Assembly (NCBI RefSeq): GCF_964213995.1
Contig: NW_027590140.1
Location: 558,001-622,000, forward strand
Direction of reading: 5' to 3'
Source: Mustelus asterias
Taxonomy: Eukaryota
DNA: 64,000 nucleotides
A program made the position numbers and the translations under genes. Below, piece after piece: positions 11,104 to 38,931 of this stretch (position 1 is its first letter; each line of letters opens with the position of its first letter). Below the pieces are notes generated by a model that saw nothing but the letters and a program-made list of their open reading frames with translations, was not told the DNA's origin and searched no databases.

Positions 11104-11394
11104 TCAGGGCCGACGAACAGGCGTTCTCTCAAGATCACAGGAACCTTCGTTGCTCTGTAAGTGACTGTCCTGTTCAGAATCTGTTAGTCCTGCTTCTGAG
11201 TTACAAAGTTTTAGGGTCAAGGCTCACTCCTGAGACTTCAGCCTGTAATCCAGGCTGTTGCCGAGTGGCAGCACCGAGGGCGTGCTGGACAGCAATGGTT
11301 GTCATATTTCGCATCAGACATTAATCTTAGGGACACACACTTCATTTATGTAAAATATCCTAGACTACTATTTTAGAAAATCATTGCGGAATTC

Positions 11395-12165
11395 ATAGAA
11401 TCATAGAACCATACAGTGTAGGAGAGGCCCTTCGGTCCATCGAGTCTGTACTGACACGCTAGAAACACTTGACGTTCCCCTTACCAGCAATTGGCCCATA
11501 CGTTTGAATGATATGATGTGCGAAATGTTCATCCAGGTAATTTTTAAAGGATGTGAGGAAACTCGCCTCCACCACCCTCCCAGGCAGCGCATTCCAGACT
11601 GTCAACTCCCTCCAGTTCAAAAAGAAATTCTCACATCCCTCCTAAACCTTCGCCCCCTCAGCTTGAATCTGTGTTGCCTCGTGACTGACCCTTCAAATAC
11701 GAGGAACAGCTGCTCCCTATCCACTCTGTCCATGGCCTTTATAACTTTGTACACCTCGATCAGGTCGCCCCTCAGTCTTCCATGCTCCAATGAAAACAAC
11801 ACAAGCCGACGGAAACTCTTCATAACTTAAATGTTCCATCCCAGGCAGCATCCTGGTGAAACTCCTTTGCATCCCGTCCAGTGCAATCATATCCTTCCGA
11901 TAATGTGGCACCCAGAACTGCACATAATACTCTAGCTTGGGCCCTAACCAACTCTACACAACTTCCACATGACATCCCTCCTTTTTTAATCTATGCCTCG
12001 ATTGATAAAGGCAATTGTCCCATTTGCCTCTTTCAGCACCCTACTAACATGTCCTTTCGTCGTCAGAGATCTGTGCAGAACCACGCCAAGGTCCCTTTGT
12101 TCCACTGAACTTCCTGGTGTCATGCCATTAATTAAATATTTCCTTGTCAACTTATTCCTTCCATC
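11395..12165 (-). mobile_element. CR1-like LINE 3' fragment
   Basis: Fragmented ORFs EQRDLGV, QFWVPHYRKD, RLRGDLIEVYK, plus the TTCTATGA tail. Confidence 0.9.
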
Positions 12166-13304
12166 TGTCCTGAGCCTGTCATTAGCTCTCAAGCAGCATC
12201 ACTGAAAATATCAGATAGATTGTTGTTGTTGGAATTTGTTGTGCGAGTTGTGGCCAGAGAGGCGCCGACAACAATGATTTCAGCAACAATAACGGCAATA
12301 TTAGCTTCAACAGCAATTGTGACAATCAGAGTCAAGCATGCTGGAATTGATGTTCAAGTTATAATCAAAAACAGATTCAATTCATAAAGTTGCTGCAAGC
12401 TGTGACCACTTACCGTTAAAATGAGTTAGCTTAATTAACTTTGATCAAGCTTACTCCTCCAAATATGATTTACAAATCTTCTCTATAACAAAACTTTAGA
12501 TGACCGAGTTTTCTGTGGGAAAATCAAATAAATACAATGCAGGATGGCAATTATTTCACCCAAAACAATAAAACTAAAAGTCCACGATGAATTCCGTGCG
12601 TGAAAATTGTTTCGCTTGCTGTTTGTAGATGGGAAAAGGGGTTCATTGTATCACTTGTTATAGCATATTAACCTCAGTTATCATTTGTCATTTCTGTGAA
12701 ATCCATCCTGTGTTCGGTGAGTGTGAGAGCAAAACGGTCACAGTGACTTCAGATATTTCAGGTGTACATCTAGTAAAAATAATTAGGGAGTAGGAAAGTA
12801 TTTTGATGATCACTCATGATCAAATATGAAGGGCGGAGGAGGCTCAAAATGCTGAATGGCTTACTCATGCTTCTATTTTCTGTTTCCAAAACTCTCAGAA
12901 GGAAATAAGTGCAGAACTAATCTGATATCTGTGAGCAAGAAGTAATTGGGCACCTGGCAGAAATCGGAAGAGACGGTCTTTGAACTTGAGATTAGAGCCC
13001 AGATCAATATCTCCCCTCACCTGCTGTTCTTGATGTAGACACAAAGGCATGGTTTGTGGGAGGTGGATGTAACCATGGAATGAGCAAGCAGAGTTTGGCT
13101 CAGTATATAATGGAATCATCCCCCTTGCCAATGGTGCAATGTGGAGGTACCCAACAGTGAGCGAATCTGTTTGTTCACCGGCCTGTAACTAAGGTGCAGG
13201 CTCTAACTTAATTATTCCTCTGGAGACGCTCACTCAGAATAAATGTGAGACGCTATGAAACCGCAGAGCTCAGGTTTAAGCTTCATTTCACTTTCTGGGA
13301 GAGG

Positions 13305-13374
13305 ATGCATGGACCAGCGAACGGTCTCTTCTTCGCCATTTTTTATCCCATTCTCGCTGCCATTGGTGTTCCTG
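13305..13374 (+). CDS. Exon 1 of GPR139-like class A GPCR
   Basis: ATG at 13305, MHGPANGLFFAIFYPILAAIGVP + G, GTAGGT donor. 70 nt, phase 1; joins exon 2 to complete TM1 (IGVP-ANLVTIVILS). Confidence 0.85.
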
Positions 13375-14596
13375 GTAGGTGAAAGATCCCAAATAATTCT
13401 CATGACTTGAAATGTATGGCGTTGCATAAACATTAACCTTTTATTGTTGAAAATTCGGTTTTATTCGAATGTAGTAAAATGCTATCTAGTGTTTTCAGTG
13501 TTTTGCACGATAAAGTCTATAAAGTGACCTATATTTCATCCACTGGTATGCACAGTCTCAAAAAATGAGCTATCGCAATCTAATAATTCAATTAGATGCA
13601 TTGACATAGAACATTCATTCACTGCTTACATGAACCTATGCTGTGACCTCCAGCAGTTAGTAATCGTTGATTTGTAGTGAGGCGGCACTGGGCTGCCCAC
13701 ATCGTTACTGAGGTTTTAAGAACTCATTATTGAAACGTTTGAAAAAGGTGTGGGGGTTATGCATTATGCATTTTGCCTTGTGTTCGTAAGTCTGGTAAAT
13801 TTCGGATAATTATATTTTTAATCACTAGCTGTATGCATGTAGATATGGCAAGGCGAATATGTCTTGTCCATATCTAGCTTTCATTTGAGAAGGCGATGTA
13901 GCGTTTGTTTCTTGAGACACTCGGATAAGTAGAATGGGGATGCTTCACAAGACTTTAACAAATCAACTTTATATTGACCGACAAAATGACTTAGAATTGT
14001 TCAACGAATTTATTTTCTAAGGATCGTCCTGAAGCACAAAGGGAAAGTTTAGTCTTTGAAAGAAGGAGTTCCAGAGGTTAGGGTCTCAGCAGGAAAAGGC
14101 ACACTGAAAAGATCAAATCAGGGGCATGGAAGTCCATATTCGGAGATATGGTGTGATCTCAGATAGTTGTAGTATGTTGCCAAAATCTGGAAAGGCAAGA
14201 TTATGGAGGGATTTATAATTCGAAGGACGAGATAATAAAAACAGAGACGCAGCCTGAATGGCAGCCGATAGGGCTGATGGATGGATGGGATTGGTACGGA
14301 TAAGAACAACGACAGCATATTTTCAGAGAATCTGAAATTTGACAGTTATCTGAGGGGATCAACTCAGTGACCAGGGGGCAGAGTTACAATTTGGACTGAT
14401 TGCAATGTCTCCTGATTTAAAATAACTTTAATCCAGTTTTGAATGTCGTACCATTGCCAAAGACTTTGCAATCACTGGAGTCTGGAGTTGGCAAAGTGAA
14501 GGATGAGGATGTTTTCAGTAACTGATTGGATGGCGCAGCAGATGGTGTTTAGAGCCCTCTCGGTAACACCTCTCTCTGTCTCTTTCTATCTCACAG

Positions 14597-15486
14597 CCAA
14601 CTTGGTGACGATCGTAATCTTATCCCGAGGACGGTGCGGACTGTCACGCTGCATCACCTACTACCTGATCGCGATAGCATTGACTGATTTCCTTGTCATC
14701 ATCACCACCATAATCCTCAACCGGATTGGCCGCATCTACTTTCAGAACAGCGTCCTGTCTACCACCCCCGCATGCACACTCAGCAATCTGCTGGTCTATT
14801 TTGCCCGGGATATGTCCGTCTGGTTGACAGTGGCTTTCACCATCGACCGTTTTGTGGCCATCTGCTGCCAGAGCCTGAAGACCAGATACTGCACCGATAA
14901 AACAGCATTGCTGGTCATAGGAATAGTCTGTGCCCTGAGCTGTGTCAGGAATGTCCCTTTCTACTTCACTTACCAGCCCTTGTACACCCTGCACGGGGTG
15001 CCCTGGTTCTGTGCTTTTAAGTCCAGCTATTACACGCTGCCCGCCTGGCAGGCCTATGACTGGCTGGACTGCATCTTAACTCCGTTTCTCCCGTTCTTCC
15101 TCATCCTGCTTCTTAACGCTCTAACCGTAAAACACATCTTAGCGGCCAGCAGAGCCCGCAGGAGACTCCGGGGCACGGGGAGTCACGGGGACCCAGAGAT
15201 GGCCAACCGCAAGAGGTCCATCATCCTGCTCTTCGCCATCGCCCTCAGCTTCCTCCTCCTCTGGTTCACCTTTATCGCACACTTCCTCTATGTGCGGATT
15301 ACAGGTGAGGGCTACCGCACCAGCCTGGATTTCAAAGACCCACGGTACATTTTTCAGGAAGCAGCAAACATGCTCCAGCTAGTCAGTTCCTGCAACAACG
15401 TCTTCATCTACGCAGTCGCCCAGACCAAGTTCCGAGAGGACCTGAAGAAGGTTCTGCTCTGCCCCTTCACCACGCTCACTGGCTAA
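14597..15486 (+). CDS. Exon 2 of intact GPR139-like class A GPCR (spliced product 319 aa)
   Basis: Acceptor TCTCACAG at 14596, then an open frame with 7TM motifs: RGRCGLSRCITYYL..D, VWLTVAFTIDRFVAIC, TPFLPF, DPEM.NR.RSIILL, SSCNNVFIY..FRE. These motifs are typical of the GPR139-like family expanded in cartilaginous fish. Confidence 0.92.
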
Positions 15487-15699
15487 AACACACATCAGCA
15501 CGTGCTTGGGTTTCATCAAATTAGATCAATGTGTACTCCGTCTCTCTGGAAACAGACACGACTGGGCTTCAGATACAGGACTTGAGAGATGTAAGGCTCA
15601 TAATACAGTGCCCACAGCCCCCGTTGTTGCTCTGAATGAATGATGAGTTATCACAGTTGCTAACTTCCTGGAGGAGATAATGTAGTGATGGAGATTTCC

Positions 15700-17470
15700 A
15701 GCATTGAAAGAGGCCCTTCGGCCATAAAACACCTATCTAATCAAATCCCATTTTGCAACAGTTGGTTCGCTTCCTTGCATGCTATGACGGTTCAAGTGCT
15801 AAATGCTTCTTAAATGTGAGGGTCTTTCCCCTGCCATGCTTTCAGGCAGTGAGTTCCCGATTCCCGCCACCTTCTGGTTAAAAACTGTTTCCGCAGGTCC
15901 CCTTTCAATATCATGCTCCTTTCCTTAGATCTATGCCGCTGGTTATTGACACCTTTACTAAGGGGAATAATTATTCTCATCTCGCTTATCTATATCCCTC
16001 ATAGTTTGGTACAAATCAGCGAGGGTCCTCTCAGTCTTCTCCACTTTAAGGAAAATAACCCCAGCCTATCCAGCCTCTTTTCATCGCTGCAAACTTCAGC
16101 CCAGGCAGCATTCTGTTGAATCCCCTTAACATCCTTTCTAATACAATCACATCTGTATGTGTAGCGAACCGAAATGCCCCGTGGCATAATGAGAGTTTTA
16201 TACAGCTCCAGCATAAATTCTGTGCTCTTTTCACCTATGCCTCTGCTAATAAAGGCAAGTACACCATGTGATCTCTTAACCACTTCATCTGTCCTGCTGC
16301 CTTCACGGATCTTTGGATATGGACCACAAGGACTCTATGGTCCTCTGTACATCCAAACGTCCTGCCGTTCATTGTGCATTCCCATGACTTGTAAGCCCTC
16401 CCGGAATGTATGACGTTATGCTTTTGAGAGTTCAATTCCATTTGCCTCTTTTCTGCCCATCTGACCAGCCCATCCGTATCATCCGGTAATCTATGGCTTT
16501 CCTCCTTCCCGTTCACCACAACACTATTTTTGTTTCATCTGCAATCTTACTGATCATATCCCCCCTCCAACCCCTCCCCTCCACCACCCCCCCGCCCCCC
16601 CCCCCCCCGCCCCCATACCCCGCACCCTCACATTCACCTCAAGATCACTCATGTAGACGACAAACAGCAAGGGGCCCAGCATCGATCCCTGCCGTACACC
16701 ACTGGACACAGGCTTCCAGTCACAAGAACAACATTCGACCATCATCCTCTGCCTCCTGCCACTCAGCCAATTTTGGATCCAATTTGCCAAATTGCTCAGA
16801 ATATCATGCGTTCTTACCTTCTTGATCACGCTCCCATGTGCGATCTTGTCAAAAGCCTGACGTCCATTTAGTCCACATTAACTGCACTTCTCTCATCTAC
16901 AAACCTAGTCACCTCTTCGAAAATTTCAATCATATTTGTTCGGCACGATCTCCCCTGACAAAGCCATGATGATTTCACTCGGTTAATCCTGTCTCACCAA
17001 GTGGTGATTAATTCTGTCCCTCAGAAATGTGTCCAATAGTTTCTCTTCCCCTGACGTTAGACTCACAGGCCTGAAATGACCTGTTTTTCCCCCTGAATAC
17101 TTTATTGAATAATGGTGCCGCATTAATTGTCCTCCTACCCTCTGGCACCTCGGCTTTAGCCAGGGAGGTTATTACAATTAGTACCAGGTCCCTGCAATCT
17201 CCTACCTTGCCTCACACAGCTGCCGAGGATTGCGCCTGGAGATTTATCCACTTTTAAACCCGTTACAACGGCTAAGACCTCCTTCCTCTCAATATCAATC
17301 TGTTCAATTTCATCACAGACTTTTCCTTGTTTTATATACCTATATCCCGCTTCTCCACGTTGAACACATGCAAAATATCCATTTAATATCTTACCTACAG
17401 CTTCAGTTTCACACACAGATTGCCACTTTGGCCCAACTGCTCCCATTCTTTCCCTGGCTACCTTCCTGTC
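15700..17470 (-). mobile_element. Degenerate CR1-like LINE ORF2 (RT) fragment
   Basis: Broken ORFs with WIQNWLSGRRQR, SGVRQGSMLGPLLF, LVRWAEKRQMELN, RLGLFSLKWRRLRG. Confidence 0.88.
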
Positions 17471-18065
17471 CTTAAAATACTTACAAAAAAACACTGTGTC
17501 TGCCGTCCCAGATGGAATACACAAGGTTACCCCGTCGCAATTAGCAAAAAGAACAGAAAGTGGCCTCTCCAGCTTCCAGCTTCTTTATTTCACAACATTG
17601 ATACACTTATCTGTTCCATTTGCCTATTGTTAAAACAAATATTTGCCGCTCCATTTCGTACATTGCACCAGGAAAGTATTTAATTGGCTCCAGACAGCTT
17701 TCGGAGGTATGTTTCTGACGATGTTAATCAACCACCGCCCAATCATGGGTGCTGACATTTTTGATAAAATTTCAAAGTAATCTTCAACATAGTGTACTCG
17801 CTCTTTCAATATCTCCCTTGTCTTCTCCATCCTCACCTCCAACAACAAGAGTGAGGAGCTCATGGAGCTTTCTTGTCACTAAGACTGAGACAATCTGATT
17901 AGTTGCCTCTGCTACTTCCCTCCCTTCTACCAACCCATCGAAGAAAATAACTTCAGACATTCGAAGCTATCACGGTAATAATAGGCTTTCGGTTCCTGTA
18001 ACATGTACGATTGAGCTTTTATTTTCCTGTAGTTGTTGAGGTATGGCCGCAATCAAAATGTAGAG

Positions 18066-18370
18066 GTGGTGGCCTGGAGGTATTGTCACTGGATTAGTTA
18101 TCCAGAAACTCAGTGTAATTGGCTGCAGACACGTGTTCGAATCCTACGATGGCAGGTGGTGACAATTGAATTCAAAAATATGGAATTAAATGTCTAGTGA
18201 CGACTATGAAACGCCGTAAAAACCCACCTGGTTCATTGACGTCCTTTAGGGAAGGTAATGTCCTTACCTGGTCTAGCCAACATGTGACTCCAGACCCACA
18301 ACAATGCAGTTCATTCTGAAATATTCTCCGAAATGGAGGGCAGTTGTGAATCGGCCAGCGATCCCCACAT
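18066..18370 (+). mobile_element. Deu-domain (SacSINE1-like) SINE, degenerate
   Basis: tRNA-like head (GTTCGAATCC), then AAAAACCCACCTGGTTCA..CCTTTAGGGAAGG..GACTCCAGACCCACA. Related copies at ~2170-2400, ~30560-30915 (-), ~36300-36625, ~37800-38135 (-). Confidence 0.6.
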
Positions 18371-19538
18371 CCTCTGAACGCATTTTATGGAATCCCAATG
18401 TCACAGGAATTTCTGTTTGGACTATTTACACATTCATGCTCTCGCTGTATCCATGGAAAGATAGAATCATAGGAATGATGGCACAGAAGGGGCCATTCGG
18501 CCGATTTTTTTCCATGCAGATCCAAAGACACCCTTTCTAATCCTAATTTCCTGCACACGGCCTATTGCCCTGCAAATTACAGCAGTTAAGGTGCAGATCC
18601 AAGGACTTTACAAACGAATTGAGTCAAGCATTCACCACGATGATTCAGTCTCAACATTTAAATGTTGCTCATTGTTGACCAACATTGTTCAGATGTTGCT
18701 ACAAAGTAAGGAGCATTGAAACTTTCCATTTTCACGGAGACACTGAAGAATCTCCTCTCAAAATGAAACAGAAATCAATTCCTCTTTAATGATGTAAAAT
18801 TATTGTTTTATCTGAAAAGCACTTTTATATGATGCTGTTTACCTAATGTGAAAAAATATTTAGATTGGTAAAAATGGAGAACTGAGCTGCATTGACACAG
18901 TTGGATGAGCGCACAAAATCATGTACACCGGAAGTCAGCGAGGCCTCAGGAGAGACATGCATCTAGTACACAAGAAAGCCATTAACTTCGCTTAGTTGTT
19001 CTTCAATCGCTCAACTGTTCTTCAAATTATGATTTACAGCACAGTAGATGACTCTTCCCCGCTGATTGAACAGTTAGTAAGTGCCTTGGCTGTTGTTTTT
19101 AACTGCAATGGTACATAAGCTAACGAGAAGATATAGGACATCTGAACTTTCGAGCCTTGGCCGATCCTCAATAACATCGGCAGAATTGGAACATGTGTGG
19201 GGAGTACTCCATCACTCCCCGATGGATTTCTAATTGATCTCCAAAACCACCAGTCCTCAACTACATGCTCATGGCCATGCACGTGGTGTTCATATAATAT
19301 CCTATTGGCTGCAGCAAAGCAGCTCGATATTCCGCCCATCTTGTCCATGTCAGTTCATTGGAAGATCAATTTAACTTGTCCTACACACGCTCCCTTTTCC
19401 ACATCAATTCAAATTCGTGTTGTCTCTCCTTGTTCTCCACGTCAAATTAAAACATCGTACAATCCAGTTAAAATTATGCTGCTACTTATCCACTCCTGTC
19501 TTTATTGAAAAGACTTAAATTCTGAACAACAGAAACTT

Positions 19539-19620
19539 TGGCAGGAGTGGGAGTCAAAAACATGCGCCCATCAAGACTAGAATCGCCATCGAGTGCATTA
19601 GACCACTCACCCATGTCACC
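19539..19620 (-). pseudogene. Highly degenerate tRNA-Leu-like sequence
   Basis: Reverse complement GGTGACATGGGTGAGTGGTCTAATGC..long variable arm..GACTCCCACTCCTGCCA follows the tRNA-Leu layout. Anticodon and B box are degraded. Confidence 0.45.
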
Positions 19621-19674
19621 AAGGAAACCACACCAACAACATTTGCCTTCAATTACATTGACATTGTAGCAGAA

Positions 19675-19946
19675 TAAAGTTTATTTATTAGTCACAAGTA
19701 AGGCTTACATTAACATTAACATTGCAATGAAGTTACTGTGAGATTCCCTTAGTCGCCACATTTCGGCGCTTGTTCAGGTCAATGCACCCTAACCAGCACG
19801 TCTTTGAAACTGTGGGAGGAAACCGGAGCACCCGGAGGAAATCCACGCAGACACGGAGAGAACGTGCAAACTCCACACGGACGGTGACTGAAGCCGGGAA
19901 TCGAATCTGATGTTGTGAGACAGCAATACTAACCACTGTGCCACCG
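19675..19946 (-). mobile_element. SINE (alternative-tail family)
   Basis: Same head and tail as 4770-5078. Confidence 0.8.
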
Positions 19947-20259
19947 ATGTACACTAATCCCACTTTCCAGCATTTGGCCCAGAGCTTTGAATGTTATGGT
20001 ATTTCCAGTGTTCATCCATTTTCATAGGGTGTGATGAATGCCGCATCTACTATACACCAAGGCAGTGCATTTCGGTCTCCCACCAACCTCTGAGTGAAAA
20101 CATTTTCCTCAAAACCCCAGTAAACTTTCGGCACCTCACCTTAAAATTATGCCCCCTCTTTATTGACCCAGGGTAACAGCTGCTTCCTATCCACCTGGCC
20201 ACGCTCCTCGTAACCTCATACACCTCAATCTTCATTCGGGAAAATATACAACAGTCTGA

Positions 20260-20490
20260 GGTCACGTACCAACCGACTCAAGAACAGCTTCTTCCGTGCG
20301 GCTGTCAGACTTTTGAATGGAATTACCTTGCATTAAGTTGATCTTTCTCTACACCCTAGCTATGACTGTAACACCACATTCTGCACTCTCTCGTTTCCTT
20401 CTTTATGAACAGTATGTTTTGTCTGTATAGCGTGCAAGAAACAATACTTTTCACTGTATGTTAATACATGTGACAATAATAAATCAAATC
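20260..20490 (+). mobile_element. Rex1/Babar-like LINE 3' end fragment
   Basis: Matches, in reverse complement, the 3' end of the 44374-46350 element (CCGACTCAAGAACA..AATAAATCAAATC tail). Confidence 0.75.
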
Positions 20491-20575
20491 AGGTCCCTCC
20501 TCAGCCTTGTTGTGTCCGAAGAGAATAGTGAAGAACGTAAGTGTGTATCTTTATGGGAGAATTGGATATGAAATC

Positions 20576-20920
20576 GGGCGGCACGGTAGCACAGTGGTTA
20601 GCACTGCTGCTTCACAGCTCCCGGGACCTTGGTTCGATTCCCGGCTTGGGTCACTGTCTGTGTGGAGTTTGCACATTCTCCTCGTGTCTGCGTGGGTTTC
20701 CTCCGGGTGCTCCGTTTACCTCCCACAGTCCAAAGATGTGCGGGTTAGGTTGATTGGCCATGCTAAAATTGCCCTTAGTGTCCTGAGGTGCGTAGGTTAG
20801 AGGGATTAGCGGGCAAATATGTAGGGATATGGGGGTCGGGCCTGGGTGGGATTGTGGTCGGTGCAGACTCGATGGGCCGAATGGCCTCCTTCTGCACTGT
20901 CGGGTTTCTATGATTTCTAT
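20576..20920 (+). mobile_element. HE1-like SINE
   Basis: Near-identical to 9309-9645. Confidence 0.9.
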
Positions 20921-21307
20921 GAAATTATTCGCATCACTTCTGTCCGGGCTCTGAGAATCTTTCCCATGGCTTGTGATTCCTGGTGTGTCAGCGTTCGTTT
21001 TGAATGTTGCGCTATGTCTGCCTTGGGAATATTTGATGGGACAATGCACAATTAACCACATGCTTCAATATATTGCATTGAGTCAGGCCAGCACACCCCT
21101 GCTCTGTAATGGAAACCCATAAGTGAATGTGACAGGCTATTCATTGAATTAAGTCAGCAATGTGTTCTTGCTGACTGTGCCGTCAATCAGTTTCCACCAC
21201 TTTATAACAAAAGGCAGGTGTAGTTGGAACACTGGATGACACAGCGACTCCTTCAATGAAGTGTCGTGGGTTCGATCAAAATCCAAATAGGATTGATTAA
21301 AAAGACG

Positions 21308-21950
21308 AGTGGATAGAGCTGTGAAGAAGGCCTATAGTGTATTAGCTTTTATTAACAGGGGGTTGGAGTTTAAGAGCCGTGGGGTTATGCTGCAACTGTA
21401 CAGGACCTTGGTGAGACCACATTTGGAATATTGTGTGCAGTTCTGGTCACCTCACTATAAGAAGGATATGGAAGCGCTGGAAAGAGTGCAGAGGAGATTT
21501 ACTAGGATGCTGCCTGGTTTGGATGGTAGGTCTTATGAGGAAAGGTTGAAGGAGCTAGGGCTGTTCTCTCTGGAGCGGAGGAGGCTGAGGGGAGACTTAA
21601 TAGAGGTTTATAAAATAATGAAGGGGATAGATAGAGTGAACGTTCAAAGACTATTTCCTCGGGTGGATGGAGCTATTACAAGGGGGCATAACTATAGGGT
21701 TCATGGTGGGAGATATAGGAAGGATATCAGAGGTAGTTTCTTTACGCAGAGAGTGGTTTGGGTGTGGAATGGACTGCCTGCAGTGATAGTGGAGTCAGAC
21801 ACTTTAGGAACATTTAAGCGGTTATTGGATAGGCACATGGAGCACACCAGGATGATAGGGAGTGGGATAGCTTGATCTTAGTTTCAGATAAAGCTCGGCA
21901 CAACATCGTGGGCCGAAGGGCCTGTTCTGTGCTGTACTGTTCTATGTTCT
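21308..21950 (+). mobile_element. Young 5'-truncated CR1 LINE
   Basis: Uninterrupted 188-aa ORF2 C-terminus, nearly identical to that of the 41973-43463 element. TTCTATG tail. Confidence 0.93.
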
Positions 21951-22270
21951 AAAAGCGGCGGCATGAGTGAGGGGCCGTTCGGTTTTGAAAATAGCGCTAT
22001 TAGGATATGCCGTGGAGCTAGGCATTTAACAACGTCTAAATTACGTACTTTGTAATTCAAGAGTTATTTACAATTTCACAGAGAACACTTTACAGAAAGA
22101 TATAGCTTAAAGTTGACCCCAGGTGAATACACAAACTGAGCGTCACAATGAGAACAGCATATTGATCGTCCAAACTGGCAATTGTCTAAAACTGGAGAGA
22201 AAAAAACGAGGCCTCTACATAAGGTGCAGTGAGAAATGCTAAATAACAAATAACCACTAATTTACAGTAC

Positions 22271-22435
22271 GAAGTCTCATAACACCAGGTTAAAGTCCAA
22301 AAGGTTCATTTGGTATCATGAGCTTTTGGAGAGCTGCTCCTTCATCAGGTGACTCAGTTGATGAAGGAGCAGCGCTTCGAAAGCTTGTGATATCAAATAA
22401 ACCCGTTGCACTTTAACCTGGTGTTGTGAGACTTC
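22271..22435. repeat. Palindromic hairpin element (probably derived from Penelope-like terminal repeats)
   Basis: GAAGTCTCATAACACCAGGTTAAAGT ... ACTTTAACCTGGTGTTGTGAGACTTC forms an ~80-bp-arm inverted repeat. Related copies at ~30220-30372 and ~57560-57800. Confidence 0.7.
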
Positions 22436-22749
22436 TTACTGTGCACCCCCCCCCCCCCCCCCCCGTCCAACGCCGGCATCTTCACATCATCACTAGTTTA
22501 CAAATCAATTCAAACAATGGTGAAACTCAAAGATGCAATCATATTATCGACATGGTTATCTCATTCAATTAAAACAGAAAAGAATAACAAAAATCCAGCT
22601 TATATTGCTATCCTGATTTTGGATTCGGATCTGTTCACTGGAGGCAGTTTAACTTTGAGGATCACGATGATAACGTACTTTCATTCCATAGGACCATTTT
22701 GTGAATAAACTGATGGGAAAATACCACACGATTTCCGAAATTCAATCAA

Positions 22750-22758
22750 TCACTCCAC
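22750..22758 (-). other. Immunoglobulin heavy-chain membrane exon TM2 (orphan)
   Basis: TATTTTGCAG acceptor followed by GTG GAG TGA (VE*; canonical is VK*), 141 bp downstream of the TM1 donor. Confidence 0.7.
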
Positions 22759-22899
22759 CTGCAAAATAGAAATAAAATAACTAAACAACCGTTTTATGTG
22801 TTTGAGATATTTACCTAAAAGCTCTTATTAATTGAGACTTCTGGACATTTTCAATCTTCTCCTATCTGATTCAAATATGAGTGGATTGAATCATCTCAC

Positions 22900-23027
22900 C
22901 TTCATCAGAGTGACTGCAGCGCTGTACGACATGCTCAGGAAGAACAGGACGATGAATGTACAAGCGGTTGTCCAGATGCTACTGTTATCATCCTCCTTGA
23001 CTGCAATCCAGATGGACTCTGTGGAAT
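22900..23027 (-). other. Immunoglobulin heavy-chain membrane exon TM1 (orphan, open frame)
   Basis: TAG acceptor, 128-nt phase 1-0 exon reading (D)STESIWIAVKEDDNSSIWTTACTFIVLFFLSMSYSAAVTLMK, then a GTGAG donor. Matches the IgH transmembrane signature WTT.STFI.LF.LS..YS..VTL.K. Confidence 0.88.
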
Positions 23028-25270
23028 CTACCGTATGGTATAGGGGATATTTTTAGATCCTCTGTTAACCTAGGATATTATTTTGGTTGTTCGTCTTTTA
23101 TTTCTTCAAGGTATTATGTTGTTTTCTGATATAATTTTCAAGCCTGTCTGTTATTAAATTAGTCGCTTAATGCAATTTTAAATACATATATTATTAAGTT
23201 AACCTCTGTCAGCAAGATAAGGTGTTACAATCTCCACAACCGTTCTTCTTTTATTTTCCTCAGACAGTCCGTTTTCGAAAATATATTTTATTCCTCAACC
23301 TGAGGCGTCTATTTCGTCTGGTGTAATTTTCCGCCAACTGTCAGTAAACAATACTATGAAGACTAAACAGGTGATGTTAACTGATATGGACTGAGTAACT
23401 TGGGTCTACATTCTCCCCAGTTTAGAAAAATGAGAGGAGATCACATTGAAACAAAATAATCGGAAAGGATGTGACGAGGTAGACACTTCATCGCAACATC
23501 GTTCATGGCTAAACCACCCAAACTGCACATCTTTGGAGTGTGGGATGAAACCGGAGAACCCGGGGGAAACTCACGCAGGTACGAGGAGAACGTGCAGACT
23601 CAACACAGACAGTCCACCCAAGGTCGGAGTTGAACCCGGGTCCCAATCGCTGTGAGGCAGCACTGCCACCCCGGTCTGTGCACCTGCATATGAGGACGTA
23701 GGTACATCTGAACACAAATAATTCAGTTATTTACAAAAGGACTTTGCAAATAATTCCAATTCTCTTTAAGCATGTCATGATAATTTATTGAGTATTCACT
23801 TACAGATACTATGCCTCAGTCAAAACCTAAATGCAATGACTGTCTTGGACGCTCTTGAAAGTGATGTACAGCTGGCCATTCCGCTGCCAAGGCAATGCAT
23901 CTTTCAAATGACTCACTGAATTTCTATCCTCTTTTTCTCGGTCTCAAACTACCTCAATCAGATAGTCTCCCTTCTTTCTCTCAGTTTCCATGAAATCACT
24001 TACATAGGCACCGAAGAACCGAACTTGACAAAACAAATGTTTAAGTTTGCACCTTGTGACTGAAAGTATGAAACCCAAAACTCTCATCAGAGGAAAATTC
24101 AGTACCAGAAGAACATTAGCTCGCTCACTGAGCGTCTCTCCTCGCTTCATTTCAAACGACACCTAACAACTTGAAACTTTCAATTTAAAACACTCTTTGG
24201 GAAAAATATCGCTTTAATTTACCTTCTTTTCTCCCAGTAAGAAAACTCGGGCTATCTCCCCTTCAATTAATGCATTTAAAACCCAAATTGTGTCCTTTCT
24301 TGAATTGTTTAAAATGGGAATGGAGGTAAATGTAATGCTGAGAGCGGCAGCAGTCTGCGTATTTGTTCTTGATGCTGTCAGAAGAGAGTTCACCCTCACA
24401 GGCAGAAAGACTGTTCACGGTGATAACATCAAACTGACGCCAGCTGTTTCATTCTCAGGTAACACAACTTCCTGTTTTTCTGCTGCTGGTTCGAAACCTC
24501 ACATCTCACTTCTGAGCAGAAAATAAATCCAGCAGCAACAATCTGGCGAGAACATCTGTCAATGCGGCCTATATCTGTCCACAGAGTCAGAGCAGAGTCA
24601 CACAGATCACATTGCGGTGACATTTACAAATGAGCCTCTTGTAATCATTTAAAATTTCCATTCCAGGACATAACTGGATAGTCAGTGGATCAGTCACTGC
24701 GTTCCCTCCGTTCTGTGAAGGTGGGAAATAATAGCTTGCTGCCTTTCATTATTTTATCAATTTCCTTTCCTCTTTAACTTGCTTTTTTTTCTTTTAACTG
24801 TCAGCATCCCGTCTTCCATTCGCATTTTAATTGACCCATCTCTACCTTTCTCCATTGGCCTGTGACTCTATTTAATGAAAGTGTGCAAAGTCATGATGGT
24901 AGGAGTGCAGTAACTAAAGAAAATCTTTTCAACTGGGAGGAGGGTTGGTAACCAATGGGCACGTGTTTATTTTATTGAACAGGAAGATAGAAGGATAATT
25001 CATACTTTTATGCCGTGACTTGTTATGAACTGGAATGAATAGCTTGAAAGAGTGATGGAGTCAGACTTCACAGTAACTTTGGAAAATAAATTAGATACAT
25101 ACTTGATGGAGTAAAATTTGAAGGATCATGGTGAATAGGCCCATTTTTATGGTTTACCTATATCATTGTCCTGGCTTTTTCTCTATATCTATCACTGTCC
25201 TTTACAGAGATTGAATAAAATGCAATATTTATACAGCTGTCTTCTTGCACTAACCTGTCTTTTACCAGAA

Positions 25271-25301
<31 letters not shown>

Positions 25302-27184
25302 CGATGATTACCAGCAAACATTCATAAATTCATTGCTATTTACAAACCATCACCATGAACAGAATAACACTGGATAGAATTTGTTTAGGAAAAGCACAAT
25401 TACCCTTCATATTTGTTGCACTTTTGTTCCCTCTGATGAGGTTTTGATGTTTTAACTTTTCAGTCATCACATGTCCTATGCTGATGATTTAAACCTGGGT
25501 TTCTACAAACTGCCGGATCTGACCCTTGTCTGTCTGTGTAAATGGGGAACTGTTGGTAAGATTGAGAAGGAACAGATTTTCTTCTGTTCCTCTGAGAAAT
25601 GCAGCATTGTCACCTCAGATTTCAGAAATATCTAGAGTCCACCATGATTCTTCCCCCCACCTATCCCCCCCTCCCGCCACCCCCCCCCCCACCACCCGCC
25701 CCACCCCCCCACCGCCCCACCTCCCCCTCCCCGCCCCACCCCCCACCGCCCTTGGGAATAACAGCTTTTAATCAGTTAATCACTCCGGCCTTTGCCATGG
25801 TGTTTCCGCTGTGTGTTTGCCACACAAATTCCTGTGTCACTTACCCTGACACAGAAACCTGCGCAAAGGCCCCAAGATTCATTGCTTCCTTCGATCAGGA
25901 TCCAGTCTGACCCCAGGCCCGGAACTCTCTCTTCTCAATGCATTGTAGCGGTCGTTCAAATATTCAAATTCTAACGCTGTAATTCTGTATGATTATTTTT
26001 AGTGACCGTTAGCCAGTCAGATCTGAATAAGAACCTATCTCTCGTATTGTTGTATTTGACTCCTCCCAATTATTATTGAACAATATACTTTCTTTCTGGA
26101 ATGATCACACAAATAACTATTTATTCTTATGTTATATCAGATCCTGTCTCTCTTATTCTATCTGGCCCATATATTGGTTCCCATTACTCTGACGGACAGT
26201 TTATGTTATCATTGCATTGACACATCTGTCTATACAAGACCAGATTCAGCCTCTGTGATTGCTGCACTATTTCTAATCATTCGTGGGATGCGGGTATCGC
26301 TGGCTCGGTCGCCCCTTTCCTTATTGCCCTTGAGAAAGTGGCGATGAGCGACTATCGTGAACAGCAGTAGTCCATATTCACCAGCCCGTGTTAATGTATT
26401 TATTATACAAGGTCAGGTCTCTCTTTATGATACATCTGATCTTGAGATATTTTATATTAGGTTATCCAGATTATACAACCTATGGACGGTCCAAAATGTT
26501 TAGGATGATCATCATGGAATTGGTGAAAGTGACGTTTAAAGACTGTAGAAGCTGAAATATTGAACCTTCTCTGAACAGCAGCAGATGTTTCAACCCTTTG
26601 CACCAATAGGAATAAGAAGTCTGAGAATTACCGATGTATTGATATCCTGTCAGGTATAGGTCCGGGTGCAATTTCGCCAACATTTTTACAAACGAACACA
26701 CATTCGAGGTATATACCAAGAGTTTTTGGTGAAATGCTGAGACTATCAATTGCCAGAATACGCTCTCCATTCGCGATTTAATTTATTCCATTTACCAACT
26801 GATCTCTAAAGCCAGATAGATCGACGCTGAGAACGAAATATTCCGTCTGAAATAACTTTGTAAACAAGAGCACACAACGGAATGGTTATCAATAAATAGT
26901 TACAGTTTTAAATGCACTTCAATTGAAATACGTGAACTATTTGGGGTTTTCGTACATTCACAGCAGGCGGAAATGGATTGAAGGTTGTCACTGGAACAAT
27001 TGAAGGGAAATTGTCCAAAATAATGATAATAATCTTCAAAGAAATTTATTAGAAAATAAAATATTTGACACAACGAAGCATTCAAATATCAAATATCCAA
27101 GGCGTGGACTGATGTGATATTTAACAAACATAGAGCCATAGAATCCCTACATCATAGAATAATATAATCCCGATAGTACAGCAC

Positions 27185-27800
27185 GGGCAGCACGGTAGCA
27201 CAGTGGTTAGCACTGTTGCTTCACAGCTCCAGGGATCTGGGTTCGATTCCCGGCTTGGGTCACTGTCTGTGTGGAGTTTGCACATTCTCCTCGTGTCTGC
27301 GTGGGTTTCCTCCGGGTGCTCCGGTTTCCTTCCACAGTCCAAAGATGTGCGGGTTAGGTTGATTGGCCATGCTAAAATTGCCCTTAGTGTCCTGGGATGC
27401 GTAGGTTAGAGGGATTAATGGGTAAAATATGCAGGGATATGGGGGTAGGGCCTGGGTGGGATTGTGGTCGGCGCAGACTCGATGGGCCGAATGGCCTCTT
27501 TCTGTGCTGTAGGGTTTCTATAATCTATGATTCTACAGAAAGAGCCTATCGAGTCTGCACTGATCCCAATTCCCATAACCCCACTTATTTTACCCTGCTC
27601 ATTCCCTGACACTAAGAAGCAATTCAGTATGGCCAATCAACCTAACCAGCGCATCGTTGGACTGTGGGAGTGAACTGGAGCACCCGGAGGAAGCCCACGG
27701 AGACACGGGGAGAGCGTGCAAACTCCACACAGTCACCTGAGGCCGGAATTGAATCCGGGTCCCCGGCACAATGAGACAGCAGTGCTAACAACTGCGCCAC
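27185..27800. mobile_element. Tail-to-tail pair of HE1-like SINEs (+ 27185-27535; - ~27530-27800)
   Basis: SINE head at 27185 on +, and a reverse-complement head ending at ~27800. Confidence 0.8.
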
Positions 27801-28311
27801 AGTGCCACTACAGTGAACGACGCCATTCGGCACATCTCGTCTGCACTGACTCTTCGAAAAAGCACCCCATCCAGGCCTTCCCTCTGCCCTATCCCTGTAA
27901 ACCCCACACATTTACCACTGCTAATCCACATTATGGCACGTCTTTGGGGGCAATTTATCGTGGCCAATCCACCTAACATGGTCTACTTTAATGTACACGA
28001 GGGACAAGCTTTTGTGCAGCAAGACAGAGACAGGGCTGAGTGCACCAATTATTGACACAGCACCTGTATCAATAAGAATGGAGGCAGCGTCCAGTTCAGT
28101 AATTACTGGGAGAGTCTCGCGTATTTGTAAGCAGTCTGTTTTTTGTCTTATGAACAAAGACATGCAGTATGTAGTTGTAACAAAGACAAGGTCTATTCAA
28201 ATATAAGTAAATACAATGTGCACTGTAATTTAAACTGAGACAGGTTCTAGCGCAATATGAAATGAGATAGGCGCTCTCGGAATTTAAGCAAGGATATCAT
28301 CTATCATGATA

Positions 28312-29275
28312 TAAACAAAGAAAAGATTACAGTACAGCACATCAACAGGCACTTCGGCTCGCCAAGCCTGGGCCGATCACATTGTCCTAACTCGACCAAC
28401 CGTCTGTACCCCTCTATTCCGTCTGTTCATGTGTCTAAAAAGATAAGCCTTAAATGTGCCTCAACCACCTTACTTGGCAGTGCATTCCAGGCCCCCACCA
28501 CTCTCTGTGTAAAAAGCTTTCCCCGCACATCTCGACTGAACCTTTTGAACTTGTACCCCTTTGTAATTGTCATTTCTGCCCCGGGAATAAGCTTCCAACT
28601 GTTCGCCCTATCTATACCCCTCATAATTTTATAAACGTCTATCAGGTCGCCCCTCAGCCTCCGTCATTCCAGGGAGAACAATCCTAGTTTATTCAATCCC
28701 TCCTCATAGCTAATGCCCTCTATGCCAGGCAACATTCTGGTAAACCTTTTCTGTACTCTCTCCAAAGCCTCCAAATCCTTCTGGTAGTGTGCTGACCAGA
28801 ATTGGACACAGTATTCTAAATGTAGCCTACCCAACGTTCTATATAACCTTGTAACATAACTTGCCAACTTTTATACTCGATACCCCATCCAATGAAGACT
28901 AGCACGCCAAATCCTTTCTTCACCAGCTTTTCCACTGTGCTACCACTTTTAAGGATCTGTGGACCTGAACGACAAGATCTGTGTGTCTATGCTCCTGATG
29001 GATCTGACATTTAACAGAGATGTTCGTGGTGGGAGATACAGGAAGGATATCAGAGGTAGGTTCTTTACGCAGAGAGTGGTTGGGGTGTGGAATGGACTGC
29101 CTGCAGTGATAGAGGAGTCAGACACTTTAGGAACATTTAAGCGGTTATTGGATAGGCACATGGAGCACACCAGGATGATAGGGAGTGGGATAGCTTGATC
29201 TTGGTTTCAGATAAAGCTCGGCACAACATCGTGGGCCGAAGGGCCTGTTCTGTGCTGTACTGTTCTATGTTCTAT
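28312..29275. mobile_element. Two adjacent CR1 fragments of opposite orientation (- 28312-28995; + 29021-29275)
   Basis: Minus-strand ORFs RLHLEYCVQFWS..; plus-strand ORF GGRYRKDIRGRFFTQRVV.., near-identical to the 21308-21950 tail. Confidence 0.85.
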
Positions 29276-30924
29276 ATGTGGTCCAGTGGAATGAAAAGCG
29301 AGGCAATGCTCATTAAAGTAATAATTGAGAGAGGATAGAGTGAAAAATGAACAGAGATACGGTTTAGCGCATTAGCAACAGAGAGAGGATCAAGCGCAAT
29401 AAAACTGACACCAGGCCGAGTGTAATTTTGTCTGATTCTGGACATTGTGTATAAACTGAGTCAAAGCCTGATGCAGTAACTGTAGACCAAGATCTTAGAT
29501 TAACATTAGCTTTGACATGGACAAGTGCAGCAATAAATGAAACATGACAGAGGACAATAATAACAGAGACAGCATGTTGTTTGGAATAAACATGGAGGTG
29601 GACTGATACAGCAGTGATTGAGATGTGGTCTAGATTAGTGTACGTGTGCAGGTTCCAGCAACGTAATAACTGCGACAGAGTCACATGTAATGCAATGAGT
29701 AACATTTTCTGGTACAGTATCAGGGGAGATAAGGTCTCGTGAAGTAACAACTGAGAAATGGAGAATTGTGGTATTAGTCGAGAATTAAATATGTGCTGCC
29801 GTAACTGCCAGAATGCAGGGTGTAATATCAACTGAGGCTTAGTTCAGTATAATAGCAACTGGGATTTTGCCGAGTGCACAAGCGACTGAAAATTGTTGTC
29901 ATGTAATCAGAAATGACACAGATTCCGTGTCATATAAACAGAGGCAGATCTAGTTTTAGATGAGCAGAGGTTGAGTCCATTGCAATAATAATTGAAATTA
30001 TGTATGTGTCATTGGAGAGCAAATTGAATGAATCATATCCCGAATGATGAGTGAATTGCTGGCAATTGATCATCTCATCATCTCACAGAAATTCTTGATA
30101 TGTGTGCTAATTGGTGAAAATGATGGCTAAAATGCACCTACTCGTAACGGAATCGGAGTGGACAACAGAAATGTCCGTTGACCTCAGGCGGGAACTTCCG
30201 GTCTCGATCCAGCGACAGTAAGAAGTCTCCCAACACCCGATTAAAGTTCAACAGGGTTATTTGGATGCACGAGCTTTTGGAGCACTGCTTCTCATCAGTT
30301 GAGGGGCAGCGCTCCGAAAGCTCATGCTACCAAATAAATCTGTTGGACTTTAACCTGGTGTTGTGAAACTTCTTAATGTGCCTGCCCCAGTCCAACGCCG
30401 GCATCTCCATATCATCGCTCGAGCGAAACCTTAAAATCCCATCTGCTTCATGTAATGCCAACAATCACGGTTGCACTGCCCTCTACTGGAAACATTTTGC
30501 TATTGCAGATGTTGTGAAAATACCAATTTTAGATGTTGTTTCATTATAATTTCATGCGATGCAAACATCGCTGGCAAGGCCATCATTTGTTGGCAATCTC
30601 TGATACCATGCATTTATTGGTTTTCTAAGCATCTCGGAGGACAGTTGACAGTCAACCACGTTGCTGTGAGACTGGAGTCACCTATAGTCCAAACTGGATA
30701 AAGATGAAAGGTTTCTTTCCTTGCAGGACATTAGCGAATCAGATGTGCTTTTCGGGAATCATCTAATTACATTACAGAAACTAGCTTCAAATTCCAAATT
30801 CTAATTGCATTTTTGAATCACACATTCTGCTGTAGTGAGATTTGAACACATGTACTAAGAAAATTGTCTGAGCCTCAAAACGACTGACTCGGTGATATTA
30901 CCACAATGTGACTGTCTCCCTTTT

Positions 30925-31263
30925 CATAGAATCATAGAAACCCTACAGTGCAGAAGGAGGCCATTCGGCCCATCGAGTCTGCACCGACCACAATCCCACC
31001 CAGGCCCTCCCCCCACATATTTACCCGCTAATCCCTCTAACCTACGCATCCCAGGACTCTAAGGGGCAATTTTTAACCTGGCCAATCAACCTAACCCGCA
31101 CATCTTTGGCCTGTGGGAGGAAACCGGAGCACCCGGAGGAAACCCACGCAGACACGAGGAGAATGTGCAAACTCCACACAGACAGTGACCCGAGCCGGGA
31201 ATCGAACCCGGGACCCTAGAGCTGTGAAGCAGCAGTGCTAACCACTGTGCTACCGTGCCGCCC
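30925..31263 (-). mobile_element. HE1-like SINE, full length
   Basis: Reverse complement of the 9309-type consensus, including the TTCTATGA tail. Confidence 0.9.
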
Positions 31264-33187
31264 ATAGAATGCCTACTGTATAGAAGAAGACCATTTGACA
31301 CGTCGTGTCTGTTTGAGCCCTCCAAAAGGAGCAATCCACCCAATTGCACTCTATACTCCGCAGTCTAGCATTTTGTTCGCTTCCGGTTAATAATCCAAAA
31401 CCATTTTGAAAGCATCAATTGACCCTGTCTCTACCACACTCTCAAACAGCTAATTCCAGATCTGAATCACTCACTGTGTGAAAACATTTTTCCCCTTGCG
31501 TCTGTGGCCAAATAACTTCAATCTGTGCCCTGTGGTACAAGATCCTTCCGCCAATGTGAAATGTTCGTCTCCATCTACCCTGTACAGACCATTCGTTATT
31601 GTTAATACCTTTATCAGATCACCTCCGTGCCAACCCGTCAAGGAAAGCAGTCTAGTTTAGTGTATACGTGGCAGATTTTAGCAAAGTTAGAACTAAGACA
31701 GAGCCTCGTGTAATGCAAACAGCAACATGTTCAGTTAGTATCAGGAGAGACAGGATCTAGTGAATTAAAAACTGAGGAATTGATACTATTATGATATTCG
31801 CTGAGATTTAATTCTGTGCTGTCACATATCAATTGAGGCTTGGTTCAGTATAATATCAATTGGGATTTTTCCCAGTACAGAAACAGCTGAGAATTATGGG
31901 CACACAATCTCACAAACGATTTAGTGTCACATAAACAGAGACTGGGTCAAGTTTAAGATGAGTAGAGACTGAGTCCTTTGCAGTAATAATTGAGACAATC
32001 TCTGTTTCATGCGATGCCAACAAACGCGGTTTCATTGCCATCTACTGGATGCACTTTGCTGTTGCAGATATTGTGAAAATGGCAACTTTTATTACTTATG
32101 ACTGCACTCGGCATTAGCAAAGTGGATGAGTTCTTAAGGACCAGAGTCTTATGGCCAACAATACTGAAACTAGCTTTAAATTTTAATTGCATGTTTGAAT
32201 CCCACGTCGCACTGCCCGGACTCAGCCATCATCAAAATGAATGGCGGAGCAGGTCCGAAGGGCCGAATGCCCGACTCCGGCTTCTGGTTTCTAAATACAG
32301 CTGTTGACCCTTTATCTTAATTGTCCTCGATCTTTTCAATTTATTTTCCCACCCTGCCCCTTCCCATCGTCAGCTTTTCACTCATTGTTGTACTTTCTTT
32401 CTACGAATATATAGCTTAACGACTCAAAATATAGTTTTCTGCTTGGAATATTGAATGAGTCTGGCAAAACTCCAGTTCTCCTCAAACGGAAACTGTCACG
32501 TATTCTCTCTCCTTCTGTCCCCCGACATCGGAACGCTTATCCAAATATCTACCAGTGGGCGGCAGATCACAATATCCCTTCTGTGGATCACAGTACCTAC
32601 AGTGACTTCATCAATGTTTCCCGAAAGACCTGATGCATCTTGAAATAAATGTAAGTTAAATGGTTGAATCCAACTTGCCTCAAATGATTTGGAGAAGGTA
32701 CAGCGGTAAACATTCATCACATAAATATCCGCATGTTGAAGGATTGGAGCCTGATATCGGTCAGAGGAAAGAGCGAGTGAAGGAAAGCGTGTCTGATGCA
32801 GGAAAGGATGTGAAAATGTGAATGAAAACCCAATTTGAGAGCTGGTTTTTGGATTACTTCACTGTCACCATTTCAGCGCCATTTCAGTGTATAATGAGTG
32901 AAAGTGACCCTGAAAGTTTTTCCGGGCCAGATGGTATTGAATTTTAGTTCATGAGAACTAACTTTACATTTCCCCGAGGGACTGTCAAGCTGTTGTCTGA
33001 GCTTCTCCCCCGTTGTTTGAACACATTGGTATCGAGTTACTGAAAGTGCTGACGTTATTCTCTCTTAAAGAGAGTCCCAATCCTGGGGTTCATGGCTCAT
33101 TGAATGAAGGAGAACAAACCAGACTGATGATAGTAATATTAATCAGACTCGGTCATTGAGTGGAATCCTGCTTACATTAGGGGAAGA

Positions 33188-33287
33188 ATCCAATCCAATC
33201 CAATCCAATCCAATCCAATCCAAATAAGGGAACGGAACCGAATCCAATCCAATCCAAACCAAACCAAACCAATCCAATCCAATCCAA
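33188..33287. repeat. (CCAAT/CCAAA)n pentanucleotide microsatellite
   Basis: Directly visible. Confidence 0.9.
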
Positions 33288-33696
33288 AAACGTGAACATG
33301 GTGAGCATTACAGACCAAAAGAGAAAATGCTGGAAAATCTCAGCAGGGATGACAGCATCTGTAAGAAGAGAAAAGAGCTGACGTTTCGAGTCCAGATGAC
33401 CCTTTATCAAAGCTGGTACCCGTAATCCTGGAAGTTACATGCGGGGTGGAATTTGAGTTAATATCCACGTGGGGCAAGTCAGAGACGAAGACAGTCACTG
33501 AGGAAGGAAATGTGGCTGTGGAAGCCATTCTTGGTAAATACCTTGTCCAACGCTGAGAGAAATGGAAAGCAGTGAAGGTGGATGGCGGGAGTGGGGCGGG
33601 AGGGCGGAAGGGGGGCGGTGGTTGTTGCGGGGAGAGACACATACGGAAATATCTGATCTTGGTGAGTACAAGAATCAATAACCCTCGCAATGTTCA

Positions 33697-33735
33697 GGTT
33701 TCTGGGCAGCTCTCTCCGTGTTCTGTATCACTGTG
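33697..33735 (-). other. Duplicate (distal) 23-RSS of the supporting V-delta
   Basis: CACAGTG 33735-33729, 23 bp ATACAGAACACGGAGAGAGCTGC, CCAGAAACC 33705-33697. A 61-bp tandem copy of the proximal RSS. Confidence 0.85.
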
Positions 33736-33757
33736 TCTGTAATCCTCACTATGTTCA

Positions 33758-33796
33758 GGTTTCTGTACAGCTCTCTCCGTGTTCTGTGTCACTGTG
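33758..33796 (-). other. Proximal 23-RSS of the supporting V-delta
   Basis: CACAGTG 33796-33790, 23 bp ACACAGAACACGGAGAGAGCTGT, ACAGAAACC 33766-33758. Confidence 0.92.
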
Positions 33797-34102
33797 CTGT
33801 GCGCTCACTCAATGCACAGTAATAAACAGCGGAGTCGCTCAGTTGTACTTTGAAGATCTCTAGCCGGCTGATTTTGACTGAAGAATGGCCATAAATGGAA
33901 ATTCTGCCCCCGGGAGTGTTTTCTTTATTCTCCGCTCCTGATGTGTGAGTCTGAAGCAGGTACTTCGGAGCCTGTCCTGGGGACTGACGATACCAGTGTA
34001 CTGTGTACTGACAGATTCCTGAATATTCACAGATTAGAGTAACCGTGTCACCGACAGTAGAGGTTTGGAGAAGTGAACTTGGTGACACAGATGAGCTGGA
34101 AC
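33797..34102 (-). CDS. NAR-TCR supporting TCR-delta V segment (leaderless, intact)
   Basis: CCTGCAG acceptor, phase 1: (G)SSSSVSPSSLLQTSTVGDTVTLICEYSGICQYTVHWYRQSPGQAPKYLL..LSDSAVYYCALSER. Canonical C/W/C plus an extra CDR1 Cys. Lies directly downstream of the NAR-type J. Confidence 0.9.
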
Positions 34103-34211
34103 CTGCAGGATAGAAATAAAATGAATTGTTTTTTTTTAGCCACTGTTTAGCCCGGAAAAACTTGGCAATCTGGCCTGTCTGTTGCGGCACTTTATTTCAT
34201 TGAATTTGGGG

Positions 34212-34517
34212 TTGGCACAATGGCACTTCTGTCTCACAGTGCCAGGGAACCAGGTTCTATTCCGGCCTCGGGTCACTGTCTGCCTCGAGTTTGCACGTTC
34301 TCCCCGCGTCCGCGTGGGTTTCCTGCGGGTCCTCCGGTTTCCTCCCACATCTAAAAATGTGCAGGTTAGGTTGATTGGGCATGCTAAATTGACCACAGTC
34401 TTCCAGCGGCATTAGCACAGTAAATGTCTGGGGTTATGGGAATAGGGCCTCTGTTGGGATGCGGTCGATAGAGATTCGATTGGCCGAATGGTCTTCTGTC
34501 CTGTCGGGATTCTGTGA
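34212..34517 (+). mobile_element. Older SINE copy in the J-to-supporting-V intron
   Basis: Diverged head TGGCACAATGG..CGGGTCACTGTCTG and tail GGCCGAATGGTCTTC. Confidence 0.75.
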
Positions 34518-38483: not shown

Positions 38484-38536
38484 CGGCTGTGACAGTCACC
38501 ACAGTCCCAGACCCATCTGCAAATCTCCATTCTCCC
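38484..38536 (-). CDS. NAR-TCR J segment
   Basis: GEWRFADGSGTVVTVTA + G, then a GTAAGT donor (phase 1, in frame with the supporting-V acceptor at 34102). IgNAR-like xGxGT motif. Confidence 0.9.
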
Positions 38537-38903: not shown

Positions 38904-38931
38904 GGTATTTGTCCTTCTCCATTCCATTGTG
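38904..38931 (-). other. 12-RSS at the 3' end of the NAR-TCR V
   Basis: CACAATG 38931-38925, 12 bp GAATGGAGAAGG, ACAAATACC 38912-38904. Confidence 0.88.

Follow-up and report, generated by a model that had tools for sequence, protein, structure and literature searches.

How did the last two exons of a membrane immunoglobulin heavy chain, open and with intact splice sites, come to lie inside a T cell receptor (TCR) V array, and do they still contribute to a gene product? The question is posed by a 64-kb stretch of shark DNA (C108:558001-622000 of the assembly; hereafter the window), in which a preliminary description had noted such a pair of exons, TM1 and TM2, apparently without any immunoglobulin heavy-chain (IgH) constant exon to precede them.

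Identity of the two membrane exons

The arrangement given in the preliminary description, a 128-nt exon between AG and GT, an intron of 141 nt and a TM2 reading GTG GAG TGA, is confirmed on the minus strand. TM1 (22900..23027, minus strand) is open, starts in phase 1 and is bounded by an intact acceptor at 23027 (...ATACGGTAG|AT, minus strand) and an intact donor (AAG|GTGAGA); together with one base from the upstream exon it translates as D-STESIWIAVKEDDNSSIWTTACTFIVLFFLSMSYSAAVTLMK. The intron that follows (22759..22899, minus strand) is homologous to that of intact-looking IgM clusters and leads through TTGCAG|GTG GAG TGA into the coding part of TM2 (22758-22750, minus strand), which specifies Val-Glu-stop, and beyond this lies a stretch homologous to a 3' untranslated region (UTR; 22491..22749, minus strand). 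The peptide carries the membrane-Ig transmembrane motif and keeps its YS pair, as had been recognized. Membrane IgM (mu isoform 2) provides the top six of nine matches in a phmmer search against PDB sequences (best E 3.4e-6), so the exon is not a chance reading frame. A protein homologue search with the 42-residue peptide returned no match, this query being too short to be informative. The window exons share with membrane IgM (PDB: 8e4c, 8ema, 7xt6, 7wsp, and 7xq8) the motif WTTA-x-TFIVLF-x-LS-x-x-YS-x-x-VT, a Lys at the end of TM1, a short TM2, and entry in phase 1, and their two-exon layout with a short intron and a two-codon TM2 is the IgM-type pattern. They differ from it in having no CH4, J, D, or V in cis, in a Cys for the Ser of WTTAS, and in a tail reading KVE, where KIK is usual among the clusters of this genome.

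The exons have been kept without a disabling mutation, with the frame and all three splice sites intact and with S23C and an altered poly(A) hexamer as the only changes. The first of these is private to the window copy, Ser standing at the same site in 21 of 25 IgM-type rows, and was thus correctly taken for a change of this copy. The KVE tail, which had likewise been suspected of decay, is not private, because Val-Glu-stop is also found in the sister pseudogene described below and in a separate clade, while most IgM clusters fetched end in Ile-Lys-stop (KIK). About 60 nt after the stop, the window has AATGAA where its clade has AATAAA or ATTAAA, and the next AATAAA lies at 21353; however, AATAAA is also absent from several intact-looking IgM clusters over the 580 nt scanned, which weakens the argument from a lost poly(A) signal. 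The pyrimidine count of the TM1 acceptor (11/17) is within the range of intact clusters, and the TM2 acceptor is better than that of the sister, which reads GGAG.

As the preliminary description had suggested, the isotype was assigned by phylogeny, using a tree of 27 TM regions (TM1, intron, TM2, and UTR) chosen to cover the distinct classes among 119 TM1-like matches. The window copy and a twin on contig C71 (100/99) are sister to a pseudogene on C127 (100/99), and then to intact-looking IgM clusters on C108, C143, and C166 (100/100). An IgW-like TM on C185, which we take to be IgW from its tail and domain pattern, is plainly different when compared by eye, outside the tree, and has no WTTAS. 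The two IgNAR-like TMs branch outside the whole set of 25 IgM-type rows; the first owes its label to a C-domain match to PDB 4q9c and a V-D-D-D-J-like layout, and the second to its likeness to the first. The window TM groups with the TMs of V-D-D-J clusters that have four C domains and end in a C-mu4-like domain, and not with IgNAR or IgW TMs. Judged by this grouping, the exons are of IgM type and not of IgNAR or IgW type.

The closest relatives of the window exons are copies on C127, C306, and C1987, which are ~93% identical and are themselves IgM pseudogenes. All three have a CH1 split by an insertion of ~950 nt, a stop in CH2, and a CH3 that has suffered a deletion and is missing a Cys; the 30-40 kb upstream of these copies yielded no V, D, or J. 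The tree and these broken copies bear out the earlier suggestion of a relic of an embedded IgH cluster, with IgM as its isotype. They also reveal the ordinary pseudogenised cluster that had been named in advance as a refutation, although this is seen in the sister copies and not in degraded CH exons at 23028-33700 of the window, where none were found.

Missing exons, truncation point, and neighbouring blocks

Four probes for constant exons came back empty over the 64-kb window: the CH1-4 of a neighbouring IgM cluster (tblastn), the CH exons of that cluster together with the sister pseudogene's own exons (blastn), nine IgNAR/IgW-like C domains (tblastn), and a 13-domain HMM run on six frames, which gave nothing in the window under E 0.14. 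As a control, the same HMM recovered all four decayed domains of the sister, in five pieces, with a best domain E of 1e-14 or lower. Upstream in cis, on the same strand, no V, D, J, or CH1-CH4 was detected, either within the window or over the next 60 kb to the right. The exons are therefore orphans within the window, as had been claimed, but not in their wider neighbourhood: a complete V-D-D-J-CH1-4-TM IgM cluster lies 30-51 kb to the left of the window, on the opposite, plus strand (C108:507-528 kb). Its last domain and secretory tail match C-mu4 over the full length, only one engineered IgG hybrid scoring higher. This intact-looking neighbour has a 1-nt deletion in its own TM2 (C108:528075-528083) relative to C143 and C166, giving it a changed cytoplasmic tail.

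What remains upstream of TM1 is the last 460 nt of the former CH4-TM1 intron (23028..23487, minus strand), with the likeness to IgM ending at 23487. Past this point the C127 copy stays colinear with an intact IgM intron toward CH4 and the window does not, which makes the window the derived, truncated form. A junction zone follows (23488..23741) that contains a SINE-like interspersed repeat (23504-23666), "SINE" being our label for a short repeat of many copies. On either side of the zone lie two duplicated blocks of different affinity. The first (10315..23487) holds the TM exons and is 87-93% identical to the C127 pseudogene copy, with sister copies on C306 and C1987, and the second (23808..57417) holds a NAR-TCR cassette and TCR V segments and is 95-99% identical, with gaps, to C229. 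The first block also contains, at 14500-15486 on the plus strand, a single-exon open reading frame of 328 residues, whose DRF motif and several hydrophobic segments make a class A GPCR likely. Related reading frames recur near other IgM fragments.

The same junction is present on a second contig: window 10359-45699 corresponds to C71:12741142-12776481, 35 kb at 99.16% identity with different flanks. In addition, runs X1 and X3 each provide single short-read contigs that bridge 23487 (22930-23543) and 23808 (23615-23890); the two runs come from one sample, possibly the assembly's own source. Together, the recurrence and the bridging contigs argue that the junction is real DNA. We considered whether the three short-read runs might be spliced RNA (word share 0.42-0.49) and rejected this; they cover introns and show no joints, and so behave as DNA. 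The C71 twin could have arisen by recent duplication, or it could be an allele whose haplotype has been rearranged. At five sites, run X1 has the C71 letters and no others, and run X2 matches the window where it covers it; such read patterns hint that the C108 and C71 copies may be alleles, but their flanks differ.

The C229 copy breaks at 23808, inside a repeat that extends to about 23742 in the window and in other copies, and no TM exon follows its break. We therefore rejected C229 as a means of dating the junction, since its break sits within a repeat kept whole in the window. Its break is probably an event of its own, as the broken repeat suggests, and C229 may have lost the TM side.

The upstream neighbour of the orphan exons, on the same strand and 10.7 kb from TM1, is the NAR-TCR cassette. 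Such cassettes were reportedly described by Criscitiello in 2006, and the one here likewise has a leader, a VNAR-like V, a J, and a leaderless supporting V. Its leader, V, and J (38484..39406, minus strand, as TM1) are open, the J having a phase-1 donor at 38484, 15.5 kb upstream of TM1, and the best PDB matches of the V are VNARs (E 2e-18). In the V-J region (38931-38960 and 38537-38484, minus strand), a 12-RSS stands directly after V, ~400 nt from the 23-RSS of J, with no separate D, and the V would thus apparently be a germline-fused V-D. The same D-less layout is seen in the cassettes at C108:957k, C138, C229, C437, C71:16.08M, and C160, while V, D, and J lie apart in those at C71:7.085M, C71:12.22M, and C123:562k. 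The supporting V (33735..34102, minus strand), which is of TCR-delta type and open, has two tandem 23-RSS at 33796 and 33735 (minus strand), 61 nt apart, a repeat that reaches up to five units in other cassettes.

Taken together, we consider that the window exons, with 460 nt of intron and the UTR, are the 3' end of an IgM minicluster that has no V, D, J, or CH1-CH4, and that they likely yield no protein, a reading to which we assign a probability of about 0.88. The stump would have been left beside the NAR-TCR block when a duplication or a deletion broke the cluster within its long and repeat-rich CH4-TM intron. As the longest gap of the constant region, and one filled with repeats, this intron would be expected to receive such breakpoints often. 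That TM1 is still open may be explained by the small target a 128-nt exon presents and by how little has changed since. Lacking a promoter, V(D)J, and CH in cis, the stump presumably takes no part in an IgM message. It is likely without function, a by-product of the frequent gain and loss of antibody genes by duplication and deletion in a mixed Ig/TCR region. As such it matters little, adding one fragment to the record of IgM birth and death in sharks.

Probable decay, and a possible late death or use of the exons

Since its separation from the sister pseudogene, TM1 has changed at about the rate of its flanks. Divergence from the sister is 8/128 (6.2%) in TM1 and 47/587 (8.0%) in the flanks (Fisher p=0.59), and the window's own branch has 5/112 changes in TM1 and 20/467 in the flanks. 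When neutral change of 4% was simulated, the frame and all six splice bases survived in 41-67% of exons, the figure varying with the indel rate assumed. The eight differences between TM1 and the sister comprise four synonymous and four non-synonymous changes on 28 and 98 sites, respectively (pN/pS ~0.29, one-sided p=0.079). The proposal that TM1 is a retained module finds a hint in this deficit of non-synonymous change, which is not significant.

Some weight, although well short of an even chance, should be given to a variant in which the parent cluster, once separate from the C127 lineage, served as a working IgM for part of the time and lost its upstream exons only late, so that TM1 would still bear the marks of past selection; its present state would be that of the functionless 3' end described above. 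Within a 25-codon core, pN/pS is ~0.2, as low as between intact clusters, and some purifying selection may thus have acted after the split; in addition, the splice sites are cleaner than those of the sister, and three of five polarised changes on the branch are synonymous. These counts are tiny, however, the overall exon rate equals the flank rate on the window branch, and the KVE tail and an altered spacer are common to the window and the pseudogene sister. A period of function may thus have followed the split.

A more far-reaching reading is that TM1 has been captured as a terminal exon by the NAR-TCR cassette. In a transcript of the rearranged NAR-TCR V(D)J, the supporting V, which has no donor, would be passed over and J joined to TM1; the product would be a VNAR-like receptor of one domain with an IgM anchor, through which it could bind CD79. 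We consider this very unlikely, and a functional product in use, a constant-less single-domain membrane receptor made by splicing NAR V(D)J in frame to TM1-TM2, would be a shade less likely still. The cassette and TM1 are on the same strand, the leader, V, and J have stayed open, and both the J donor and the TM1 acceptor are in phase 1, so a join of J to TM1 would be in frame; a GTGAGC at the 3' end of the supporting V is also in phase 1, and the weak pN/pS deficit (p=0.079) could be counted in favour. Phase 1 is, however, usual for Ig-domain exons, and the in-frame fit therefore says little. Moreover, J and TM1 are separated by 15.5 kb with 18 AATAAA hexamers, the poly(A) hexamer of the clade has been lost, the Cys of the NAR-TCR V normally pairs with the supporting V, and T cells are not known to have CD79.

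The distribution of the layout speaks against capture as well. The assembly has at least 66 matches to the window's NAR-type V among the best 150 of 497 candidates scored, many of them on the 20-Mb contig C71. Among the 64 NAR-TCR-type matches listed (the 66 minus two IgNAR V), an orphan TM lies downstream on the same strand in two only, the window and its twin, which represent one place. The remaining 62 have none, in keeping with the NAR-TCR unit as reportedly described (Criscitiello 2006), which is without a TM exon, and the C229 cassette, 98-99% identical to that of the window, also has no orphan TM. If a J-to-TM1 product were nevertheless made, it would repeat in the present day the transfer of a domain from TCR to Ig from which IgNAR is thought to have arisen, and the stump would matter far more, since the splice would show how new Ig/TCR chimaeras originate.

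Hardly credible is the proposal that the exons are an ancient relic of an IgH cluster that took part in an exchange of the NAR V with the TCR-delta locus; the preliminary description had envisaged such a cluster as the possible donor of the NAR cassette. The shared strand and the 10.7-kb distance from the cassette would fit it. The exons are, however, IgM-type and sit within an IgM clade of little depth, with ~0.1 changes per site separating them from the pseudogene sister, whereas the IgNAR-type and IgW-like TMs of this genome are without WTTAS and differ throughout, with the IgNAR-type TMs outside the 25 IgM-type rows. The tree thus refutes such a donor, barring a gene conversion that replaced both an older TM and 13 kb of its flank. 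Earlier work also points away from it, reporting NAR-TCR in elephant shark, which has neither IgNAR nor IgW (PMC3964593), and proposing a transfer of a NAR-TCR V into an IgW cluster (PMC12227049; PMC4279169). Just as improbable is a mis-join of the two duplicated blocks during assembly, which the mosaic of near-identical blocks over many small contigs might invite, but which the second occurrence of the junction on C71 and the bridging short-read contigs of the one sample oppose.

Known incomplete IgM units and a census of stumps

The setting is the one that Flajnik et al. 2025 (PMC12227049) have described as the elasmobranch antigen receptor complex. For great white shark and stingray, Table S1 of that paper lists IgM entries marked "missing V", "C only", and "pseudo" among TCR alpha/delta V and NARTCR, so an IgH piece inside a TCR V array is to be expected. 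The window resembles those incomplete clusters in being interleaved with TCR alpha/delta V and NARTCR cassettes; unlike them, it keeps the last two exons only, and Table S1, which derives from gene models, has no TM-only fragment. A further parallel comes from rabbit, in which the remnant of a dead IgD gene (Lanning et al. 2017, PMC5568218) shows TM exons with splice sites likewise outlasting upstream constant exons, and use of the TM was not found by 3' RACE or in mRNA. There, TM1 is frameshifted and flanked by CH2/CH3 remnants, whereas the TM1 of the window is open, has no CH remnant, and belongs to a multi-cluster shark locus. A full-text literature search found no account of an orphan shark IgH TM exon, which is not proof of absence, as earlier studies or supplements may mention TM-only remnants or D-less NAR-TCR.

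Far from being the last relic of IgH, as had been surmised, the window exons are one of 119 TM1-like exons in the assembly (124 candidates scored), alongside at least 105 IgM CH4 matches among the best 150 of 506 candidates scored. A CH4 lies within 25 kb upstream of 96 of the 119 (median 3.8 kb, range 2.3-18.4). No CH4 match was detected within that distance of the other 23, a figure that may be an overcount because the CH4 list is a lower bound; on C71 the proportion is 5/29. Twelve of 21 other stumps were read in sequence, of which 11 have no CH exon in the 9-29 kb upstream and one has VH, J, and CH1 only. In the 27-row tree, TM-only stumps occur in three separate clades, and they must therefore have originated independently at least three times. 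A small new point is the frequency of such stumps: for about one in five IgM TM1 exons of the assembly, spread over at least three clades, no CH4 was detected upstream. Gene-model tables miss them, and counts of IgM clusters based on TM exons would be inflated by them.

Several of the other fragments deserve mention in their own right. A second TM-only family has been amplified, with copies at C71:4920513, 5630818, 8650751, and 10790534, at C128:811237, on C88 and C147 (three each), and on C170, C194, C298, and C96. The tree includes four of its members, which group as sister to an IgM pseudogene (C71:19.3M) whose CH4-TM intron measures 18 kb, and the TM2 acceptor of the one member read has CAA for CAG. 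An IgM-type cluster at C770:72972-80921 has VH, J, and CH1, followed 1.5 kb later by TM1, and its CH2-CH4 were not found there. Finally, a decayed TM1 stump at C122:410929 (minus strand) has a TCR V segment ~1 kb upstream on the same strand.
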